From: Escherichia phage ECO95 1-6-1
Sequence record: OR845271.1
Length of the DNA: 6,032 bases
Reading direction: 5' to 3' (one strand)
This document shows positions 4,251 to 4,910 of the stretch, one piece after another (positions within the stretch are counted from its first letter, which is position 1; each line of letters starts with the position of its first letter). The notes beneath the pieces were generated by a model that did no database searches, was not told the origin of the DNA, and was given only the letters and a program-made list of their open reading frames with translations. The position numbers and the translations under genes are program-made.

Positions 4251-4910
4251 TCACTCACACTCTACAAACTCACCATCTTCATTCAGTTGATACCATATAT
4301 CCGGCATAATACCGTTCTCGCCAACCTTACTGGCGCGGATATGAATTAACTCGCCATCTTCATCTCGATAGCAAAGCACAATAGCTCCGCCTTCAGATGC
4401 CCTGGCTTTTCCTTCTATTCCGAGTGATGCCGCTACGGATTGCGATCCAGACACTTCCGCTGCTGACCAGTCGCCAGTGTTGGTTGCTGCTGACCGGTTG
4501 CCAGTGTTGGTTGCTGCTGACCGGTTGCCAGTGTTGGTTGCTGCTGACCAGTCGCCAGTCATGATCTGCTGTTCCAGCGATTTATCTATCTTGCTCCAAA
4601 TCCACTCAATACCACGCTGAATGAACTGTGGAAGCGTTAACTCAGCCTTAATCGTGATACTGGCACTAGCTATTTTAGTGTCACCTATTTCTTCACGGTC
4701 TATAACACCAAAAGATATTGTTTCCGCATAGCGACTTTCTGCAGGAGGGTAATAACTGAAAACATCGAAAGGACATTCACAGGCGTGAAATCCAGAACCG
4801 CAAGCCTCTACTTTTCCCTCGTGATGGAAGGTCTTGCCAATTTCAAACTGAAAGTCACGGCACTTAAGGTCTTTGTTAAATCCCTTGAATGTCACAATTT
4901 CTTTGGTCAT
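4251..4910 (-). CDS. Phage protein resembling the DUF7666 family (219 aa): Cys/His-rich N-terminal domain, 9-residue tandem repeats, small C-terminal beta domain
   Basis: Track ORF with SD AAGGAA. The N-terminal FKGFNKDLKCRDFQFEIGKTFHHEGKVEACGSGFHACECPFDV and C-terminal GGAIVLCYRDEDGELIHIRASKVGENGIMPDIWYQLNEDGEFVE match my memory of this uncharacterised phage family. The family name is from recollection only. Confidence 0.85.
   Translation of the reverse strand: MTKEIVTFKGFNKDLKCRDFQFEIGKTFHHEGKVEACGSGFHACECPFDVFSYYPPAESRYAETISFGVIDREEIGDTKIASASITIKAELTLPQFIQRGIEWIWSKIDKSLEQQIMTGDWSAATNTGNRSAATNTGNRSAATNTGDWSAAEVSGSQSVAASLGIEGKARASEGGAIVLCYRDEDGELIHIRASKVGENGIMPDIWYQLNEDGEFVECE
4459..4560. 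repeat. 27-bp in-frame tandem repeat, about 3.8 copies
   Basis: Unit gctgctgaccggttgccagtgttggtt begins at 4459, 4486, 4513 and 4540. The inner two copies are identical. The outer two share the variant ccagtcgcc. The repeats encode TG(D/N)(W/R)SAATN nonapeptides. Confidence 0.95.

Follow-up and report, generated by a model that had tools for sequence, protein, structure and literature searches.

Between the genes N and cIII, the leftward early (pL) operons of lambda and P22 carry intrinsic terminators inside the transcription unit, as illustrated by the tL-type terminators and N antitermination of lambda and by the ral/gene 17 region of P22. Casjens and colleagues described such intra-operon terminators in P22-like phages and proposed that they damp transcription that is not antiterminated by gp24. 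Here, we study a gene lying at the same N-to-cIII position in a stretch of 6,032 nucleotides (nt) from Escherichia phage ECO95 1-6-1 (OR845271.1), hereafter the window, which, read on its minus strand, is the early-left (pL) operon region of a BTP1/P22-like lambdoid Salmonella prophage. As in lambda and P22, an N-type antiterminator is encoded just upstream, whereas the cargo differs: the gene specifies a protein of 219 amino acids (aa) that belongs to the family DUF7666 (PF24703). Its homologue in phage ES18, to which the window DNA is ~95% identical, is gp53, annotated as “function unknown”; the two proteins have the same DUF7666 domain, the same three-part architecture, the same slot and the same flanks, and they differ in repeat number only (11 units and 282 aa in ES18 gp53 vs. 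four units here). The other described system that matters is RIIB of phage T4, an early phage protein like that of the window, whose C-terminal domain (about aa 209–308) is a probable relative of the DUF7666 head. The features on which the argument rests are the following:

4251–4910, minus strand: gene of the DUF7666 protein, 219 aa, homologue of ES18 gp53 (open reading frame from ATG to TGA, and Pfam match)
4590–4910, minus strand: region encoding the DUF7666 head domain
4452–4559, minus strand: four nonapeptide units TG-xx-SAATN (27-nt tandem repeat), aa 118–153
4254–4451, minus strand: C-terminal degenerate repeats and beta cap, aa 154–219
4918–4923, minus strand: Shine–Dalgarno AAGGAA, 7 nt before the ATG, within the conserved terminator–Shine–Dalgarno–ATG junction
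4937–4958, minus strand: weak intrinsic-terminator-like hairpin and U-run, a backbone element (scan, folding, conservation)
4114–4140, minus strand: stronger intrinsic-terminator-like hairpin and run of six U, upstream of cIII (scan, folding, GenBank annotation)
4141–4250, minus strand: conserved structured 3′ untranslated region (UTR) with three hairpins, 3′ boundary of the slot

The gene is real, and it had been correctly described as a member of a known, uncharacterised family: the Pfam hidden Markov model (HMM) of DUF7666 matches aa 5–98 (E = 1.1e-35; 122.4 bits for a cutoff of 27) over positions 1–94 of the 95 of the profile, while PHROGs assigns the protein to phrog_4433, listed as function unknown. 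The family is indeed widespread, with 4707 clusters at 50% identity. Literature searches for DUF7666, for the repeat motif and for ES18 gp53 returned nothing on function, and none of the papers searched mentions DUF7666 by name, so that the initial annotation was nearly right in calling the family one without an assigned function, except that a homologue from an Acinetobacter phage has been published as an ADP-ribosyltransferase (ART). The protein is acidic as a whole (isoelectric point, pI, 4.8) and has no signal peptide. At the DNA level, the window matches Salmonella phage S.Kent 1-2-1 with 100% identity, whereas no E. coli homologue was found; the exact 219-aa protein is indexed in 180 blocks of an assembly collection, of which the contigs that were read are Salmonella genome assemblies.

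As judged from sequence comparison, the gene occupies a variable “ral slot”, in which fixed boundaries enclose unrelated genes in different phages. The 5′ boundary consists of the weak terminator, the Shine–Dalgarno and the ATG, and the 3′ boundary of the structured UTR followed by the stronger terminator before cIII. Both hairpins announced by the initial annotation are present: the upstream one has a stem (4958–4942) of 7 pairs (5 GC), a 3-nt loop and a U6 run (−9.9 kcal/mol), the downstream one a stem (4140–4120) of 7 pairs (6 GC) followed by U6 (−14.7 kcal/mol). A scan of the window returned four terminator-like sites for 1.9 ± 1.3 in shuffled sequences, a count that is weak by itself, and it is conservation in related phages, not this count, that settles their status. 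The hairpin at 4937–4958 is nearly identical in ES18 and epsilon34 (one or two base changes), and GenBank records carry terminator annotations at matching positions, for both sites in epsilon34 (where the upstream one is labelled “putative weak”) and for the downstream site in ES18. When aligned, the string TCTAATCAGGTCGCAATGCGGCC-TTTTTT-ATTGCCAAAATTTAAGGAATAACAAC-ATG is essentially identical in the window, ES18 and epsilon34. In the latter, the terminator–Shine–Dalgarno–ATG junction, with two base changes, precedes a 169-aa pentapeptide-repeat gene, the product of which has no similarity to the DUF7666 protein, and the ~165 nt from the cargo stop codon to cIII, strong terminator included, are likewise common to the three phages. 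ES18 has the same boundaries with the same cargo type, epsilon34 the same boundaries with an unrelated pentapeptide cargo. More generally, 86 phage records match the region, many of them by both ends only (14–21% query coverage), and the cargo that these carry between the matching ends is ral, HNH endonucleases or pentapeptide proteins. The P22-like phage As3 is ordered N (minus strand), sieB (plus), ral (minus), further genes, gene 17 and further genes; its slot holds ral, and N and cIII flank the window gene, which bears out the proposed equivalence with the ral/ea10 position of lambda.

These comparisons indicate that the two putative terminators belong to the backbone of the P22-like pL operon, are already annotated in related records and are not specific to the gene, so that the notion of a “terminator-bracketed” gene under its own control is not supported: the junction and the 3′ flank are shared with unrelated cargo in epsilon34. 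What does stand is that the ~26 nt from the upstream U-run to the ATG are too few to accommodate a promoter. Delayed-early genes in general are expected, on textbook grounds, to be expressed by N-modified polymerase, and pL is repressed in lysogens of lambda and P22. The stronger claim, that only N-modified polymerase could express the gene, is overstated, as a hairpin as weak as the upstream one could let some transcription leak through.

The 3′ boundary is itself a structured RNA. The UTR at 4141–4250 folds at −36 kcal/mol, vs. −22.1 ± 3.0 in shuffled sequences (z = −4.6), and it is conserved in ES18, epsilon34, P22-like loci of IMG/VR and As3 whatever the cargo, the As3 copy being located between a hypothetical gene and gene 17. 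Hairpin 1 has 8 pairs with compensatory double changes in five sequences, while the changes in hairpin 3 (A-U to G-U and C-G to U-G) preserve pairing on the minus-strand RNA only. The element has no match in Rfam; it may act in RNA processing or stability, or be a small RNA.

As for the protein, an AlphaFold (AF2) model was built with 42 diverse homologues, because a single-sequence run was useless (predicted local distance difference test, pLDDT, 34). With the alignment, the model reached a pLDDT of 93 and a predicted template modelling score of 0.69, and it upholds the three-part organisation first read from the sequence: an alpha/beta head (aa 1–107), short strands every nine residues (aa 123–171) and a beta cap (aa 176–217). 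In the model, each repeat contributes a 4-residue strand (AATN) and a 5-residue turn (TG-xx-S), and the whole forms a thin beta-roll. Tandem Repeats Finder locates 3.7 copies of a 27-nt unit at 4459–4559 (94% matches, score 174), and the encoded units read TGDWSAATN, TGNRSAATN, TGNRSAATN and TGDWSAAEV. A likeness to a beta-solenoid or to a YadA head had been suggested initially. The nonapeptide period does form a two-sheet beta-roll in the model, but there is no match to the trimeric autotransporter head fold or to the YadA-head/Hep_Hag HMM. With the RTX beta-roll, the C-terminal beta-helix of MinC and the antifreeze protein of Rhagium, the repeats share the nine-residue period, the short strand plus turn per unit and a very thin Ala-rich core; they differ in being cytoplasmic, without a secretion signal, in having a variable di-residue in the turn and in lacking the GGxGxD calcium motif (neither the GGxGxDxUx consensus nor a Pfam HemolysinCabind match was found in them). 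The period is nine, with neither a five-residue period nor a Pfam Pentapeptide match, and the labels “c-type lectin” and “pentapeptide”, which some related records bear, do not hold for the window protein. A role as a DNA mimic was ruled out on charge, the repeat region being roughly neutral (pI 4.6; three acidic and two basic residues). Finally, the repeats and cap (aa 118–218) align with the last 100 residues of the NCBIfam model for YdhT of E. coli (E = 1.7e-10, a match far short of the family cutoff) and also stand alone as phrog_27197, which makes them an independent mobile module.

The number of repeats is strikingly variable. The closest Salmonella homologues range from 264 to 354 aa in steps of 9 aa, so that the set spans 219 to 354 aa when the window protein is included, and alleles with otherwise identical flanks have from 4 to about 19 units. 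In eight proteins, the N-terminal 117 and C-terminal 69 residues are 100% identical to those of the window protein, while 7–14 more units lie between them, which implies that copy number evolves more rapidly than point substitutions accumulate. In three near-identical Acinetobacter phages, the homologues have 195, 291 and 345 aa. At the two residues after TG, a small set of amino acids occurs ({D,N,Y}{R,Q,W,Y,C}), in the same pattern as in a Pseudomonas phage homologue; a diversity-generating mechanism was considered for this di-residue and rejected, as the variation is confined to three nucleotide positions and is common among units. The pentapeptide proteins of the slot (epsilon34 gp42, orf232 of L and ST64T) behave similarly, in that they have the same slot and junctions and beta-solenoid repeats whose count varies between near-identical phages (exactly one repeat between L and ST64T, as published), but they are unrelated in sequence to the window protein and have no DUF7666 head; by contrast, in Rheinheimera and C. 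difficile phages, the DUF7666 head is itself fused to Pentapeptide_2 repeats. Separately, many IMG/VR contigs (L010–L017, L027, L028, L032 and others) end within the repeats of a DUF7666 gene, probably because assemblies break at the tandem repeat, which implies that truncated DUF7666 entries are common in databases.

The origin of the head was approached through structure and profiles. A Foldseek search of the model, as the initial annotation had proposed, returned nothing below E = 1 in the PDB; among viral models, it retrieved numerous DUF7666 members of jumbo phages and giant viruses, together with four proteins annotated as RIIB, lysis inhibitor or membrane integrity protector (E = 2.6e-3 to 2.1e-2; 105–124 aligned columns). 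With hhalign, the head profile aligns with T4 RIIB by placing CGSGFHAC on CSRGLHVC (motif C-x2-G-h-H-x-C; E = 0.0022). A profile of the RIIB C-terminal domain was then assembled from 14 diverse phages (Straboviridae, Ackermannviridae, Felixounavirus, Vequintavirus, Schitoviridae, and Caulobacter and Streptomyces phages), and the profile–profile alignment (P = 0.0014; 88 columns; head aa 3–92 vs. about 209–308 of T4 RIIB, i.e., the whole domain) pairs the aromatic-Lys (K9), G25, C37-x2-G40-h-H42 and K79, for P = 0.57 with reversed RIIB and P = 0.44 for Arr vs. RIIB as controls. On these grounds, we regard homology between the DUF7666 head and the RIIB C-terminal domain as likely, if unproven. 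T4 RIIB otherwise differs by its N-terminal helix-turn-helix (HTH) and middle region, by the absence of repeats and by working with RIIA. In the literature, T-even phages need RIIB to overcome RexAB of lambda; produced on its own, RIIB is toxic, and it suffices to trigger a bacterial gasdermin/CARD system.

At the residue level, the signature K9, C17, G25, C37, G40, H42, C44, Y53, Y54 and K79 is present in full in the window protein and 89–100% conserved in 148 representatives, whereas E90 is partly conserved. The Cys/His strings in which a metal site had been suspected do exist, and C17, C37, H42 and C44 are conserved in close relatives, but H29, H30 and C46 are not. Moreover, distant DUF7666 members lack C37, and the RIIB relatives lack C17 and C44, losses that argue against a universal four-ligand zinc site; a family-wide zinc finger was rejected on this account, each of these three Cys being missing in some sub-lineages. 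Across DUF7666 and RIIB, only Lys9, Gly40 and His42 are universal.

Elsewhere, the context of the gene is again early and non-structural. In temperate phages of Acinetobacter and Pseudomonas, the DUF7666 gene lies in a leftward operon downstream of cI, and in diverse IMG/VR contigs its neighbours are anti-repressors, repressors and single-stranded DNA-binding protein genes. The head is fused to nonapeptide repeats, to Pentapeptide_2 (Rheinheimera and C. difficile phages), to DUF4116 (a Lactobacillus phage) and to ankyrin repeats (mimiviruses), the build that an effector head carried on interchangeable scaffolds would have.

The explanation that we favour, while granting it somewhat less than an even chance of being correct, is that of a delayed-early cytoplasmic effector, carried as slot cargo and endowed with a RIIB-C-related head, that acts probably against host- or prophage-encoded exclusion. 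By extension from lambda and P22 biology, the gene would be transcribed from pL by a polymerase made terminator-resistant through the N-type protein encoded just upstream, and it would hence be delayed-early and silent in the repressed prophage. Its product, as modelled, is a soluble acidic cytoplasmic protein combining a ~105-aa alpha/beta head, a flat beta-roll of 9-residue units and a small beta cap. The head would be the working part, a divergent relative of the RIIB C-terminal domain with an ART-like fold, in which the conserved Lys/His(/Cys/Tyr) signature could form a putative pocket, and it would bind or chemically modify a host or resident-prophage component; the repeat rod may serve as a spacer of variable length or as an interaction surface. 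The most likely role would then be to protect the infecting or induced phage from exclusion or abortive infection encoded by the host or by a prophage, a role for which the analogy with RIIB and with the slot neighbours (ral, gene 17, kil and abc2) provides modest support.

Several observations weigh against this explanation. The HH-suite probability of the DUF7666–RIIB link is 17% only, and the Pfam DUF7666 model does not match T4 RIIB. HTH matches are found at aa 7–50 of T4 RIIB, whereas the window protein begins directly with the DUF7666 domain, and RIIB acts with RIIA, whereas neither the window nor the prophage flanks contain an rIIA-like gene. A triad of the H-Y-E or R-S-E type is not evident in canonical order in the head (the conserved set being K, C, H, C, Y, Y, K). 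The nutL site falls outside the window or at its very edge, so that we infer the dependence on N rather than show it. Finally, PADLOC gave no match for the DUF7666 protein, although this resource models defence systems and is uninformative on anti-defence.

Should the head instead be an active NAD+-dependent ADP-ribosyltransferase, it would contribute to host takeover or act as a lysogen-stabilising toxin with a neighbouring antitoxin. T4 Alt and Mod exemplify such remodelling of host proteins during takeover. For the Acinetobacter phage homologue, which is 56% identical to the window protein over the head domain, the published annotation as an ART relies on HHpred similarity to Arr, and a toxin role with a neighbouring antitoxin was proposed; here, the single-gene slot offers no partner gene. 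The size of the head is comparable to that of minimal ARTs such as Arr, and an ART-like fold (as in BC2332-like proteins, PARP catalytic domains, Arr, KptA/Tpt1 and Tre toxins) has modest support as a lead from one method applied to the predicted model. Yet, no sequence-profile link to any ART family was obtained: the head profile had no relevant match in the PDB and the whole protein sequence none, Pfam searched at E ≤ 10 with 40 head domains returned no weak ART matches, and hhalign against Arr profiles of 2 and 111 sequences gave probabilities of 0.15–0.3%. The universally conserved residues, moreover, are Lys, Gly and His, not an ART triad. A further hint comes from 3 of 150 family representatives (P0147, P0234 and P0236), which have an extra N-terminal module of ~125 aa (phrog_2072), otherwise a widespread stand-alone family in Bacteroidales phages. 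In the PDB, seven of its eight profile matches, including the two best, are macrodomains (BT1257, E = 0.05; TARG1/OARD1, E = 0.55; motif kIGCGiAG), Pfam Macro reaches E = 0.053 on the module, and one source names a member O-acetyl-ADP-ribose deacetylase; the macrodomain evidence is nevertheless below significance in each single test, and none of 80 viral loci has a macro-like gene next to DUF7666. We therefore hold the enzymatic alternative to be rather unlikely. Similarly doubtful is a non-enzymatic binder, in which the head (perhaps holding zinc through C17, C37, H42 and C44) and the flat Thr/Asn/Ser-rich beta-roll would act as a decoy, sponge or inhibitor of a host factor or immune signalling molecule. 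Conservation of the Cys/His cluster in close relatives, fusions of the head to protein-binding scaffolds (ankyrin, pentapeptide) in other viruses, the presence in the same slot of pentapeptide-repeat proteins, a class known for molecular mimicry, and a repeat number free to vary, as in a scaffold under little constraint, all speak for it, but the Cys ligands are not kept across the wider family or RIIB, the near-neutral repeats are no DNA mimic, and a Lys and a His that never vary point rather to chemistry or to the specific binding of a ligand.

The remaining alternatives bear on when and for whom the gene is expressed. A role in lysogenic conversion or superinfection exclusion, in which the prophage would express the gene so as to protect its host, would suit a slot that adjoins the sieB position in a prophage that also carries BstA, and the authors of the Acinetobacter study proposed a role in lysogen maintenance. 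Against this, the gene belongs to the pL strand and immediately follows a terminator, from which its ATG is separated by ~26 nt that contain no promoter, and it has no match in PADLOC. With pL repressed in lysogens, we deem such a role improbable. Even less convincing is a dedicated regulatory leader or attenuator made of the two hairpins, the form in which regulated readthrough of a leader had first been envisaged: the terminator does abut the ribosome-binding site, but the same junction precedes the unrelated gene of epsilon34 and the 3′ flank is common to different cargos, which makes a gene-specific device unlikely, and the leader region has neither an Rfam match nor an unusual folding energy (z = −0.5). 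As to a virion, tail-fibre or adhesin-like structural protein, to which the repeats might have pointed, it is hardly credible for a product of the early-left operon between N and cIII that has no signal peptide and no structural annotation in Pfam or PHROGs, and we rejected it on gene context, the neighbours in other phages being early, regulatory or replication genes and never virion genes.

Around the slot, the gene order is N, a plus-strand gene, terminator, DUF7666 gene, terminator, cIII, kil and a Rad52-type recombinase (annealing protein), with these additional features:

5594–5956, minus strand: N-type antiterminator gene (Pfam N_peptide, E = 1e-18)
4960–5098, plus strand: upstream region of the plus-strand open reading frame, with similarity to sieB-carrying phages
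3911–4051, minus strand: cIII gene (Pfam, E = 7e-27)
4006–4064, minus strand: cIII thermoregulator RNA, full-length match overlapping the start of cIII (Rfam RF01804, 81 bits for a gathering score of 50)

The plus-strand open reading frame (5099–5593; 164 aa; phrog_1244, unknown function), which had been overlooked initially, is convergent with N and stands at the sieB position of P22-like phages; as with P22 sieB, the convergent gene lies between N and the first terminator. Its product has a coiled-coil N-terminus and a CxxC...CxxC zinc ribbon, and a stretch of 90–127 bp upstream of the frame is ~88% identical to its counterpart in sieB-carrying phages, which there takes in the initial codons of sieB. 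Nothing annotates the protein as SieB (it falls in phrog_1244 and has no match in Pfam or PADLOC), although SieB was not compared directly. These features point to a substitute gene, for exclusion or abortive infection, at the sieB position. Just 5′ of this frame, a direct repeat, TACCCCTACAG(C/T)(G/A)AGA(A/G)AG, occurs at 5037–5055 and 5072–5090, 35 nt apart, and may be an operator or promoter element. On the minus strand, ~32 nt upstream of the N start codon, a hairpin (CCGGGA-AUUGAAACAGG-UCCCGG, 5988–6010) may be a boxB-like nut element for this type of N. Outside of the window, a BstA_C-domain gene beside the repressor (prophage locus L090, 3425–4348) marks the prophage as BTP1-like and abortive-infection-encoding.

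It is tempting to go further and to unite DUF7666 and the RIIB C-terminal domain in one previously unrecognised pan-viral superfamily, spanning temperate, lytic and jumbo phages as well as giant viruses, with an ART-like fold, a Lys/His signature and interchangeable repeat scaffolds, of which the P22-like protein would be a minimal RIIB-type factor disarming prophage- or host-encoded abortive infection; this broader proposal is speculative and, taken as a whole, unlikely. DUF7666 is in any case a very large family, found in giant viruses and in the early regions of phages that infect several bacterial phyla, and its P22-like copy offers the least complicated setting for its study, as one gene in a defined, swappable slot of a genetically tractable Salmonella phage, with natural alleles that differ only in repeat number. 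If the relationship with the RIIB C-terminal domain is true, this gene would provide a small, HTH-less and RIIA-independent model for a domain that has lacked a mechanistic explanation since the rII work of Benzer, and if the superfamily is true, its study could reveal the biochemical activity of the rII system. The transcriptional arrangement being ordinary lambdoid biology, the value of the locus lies in this possible bridge between DUF7666 and rII.

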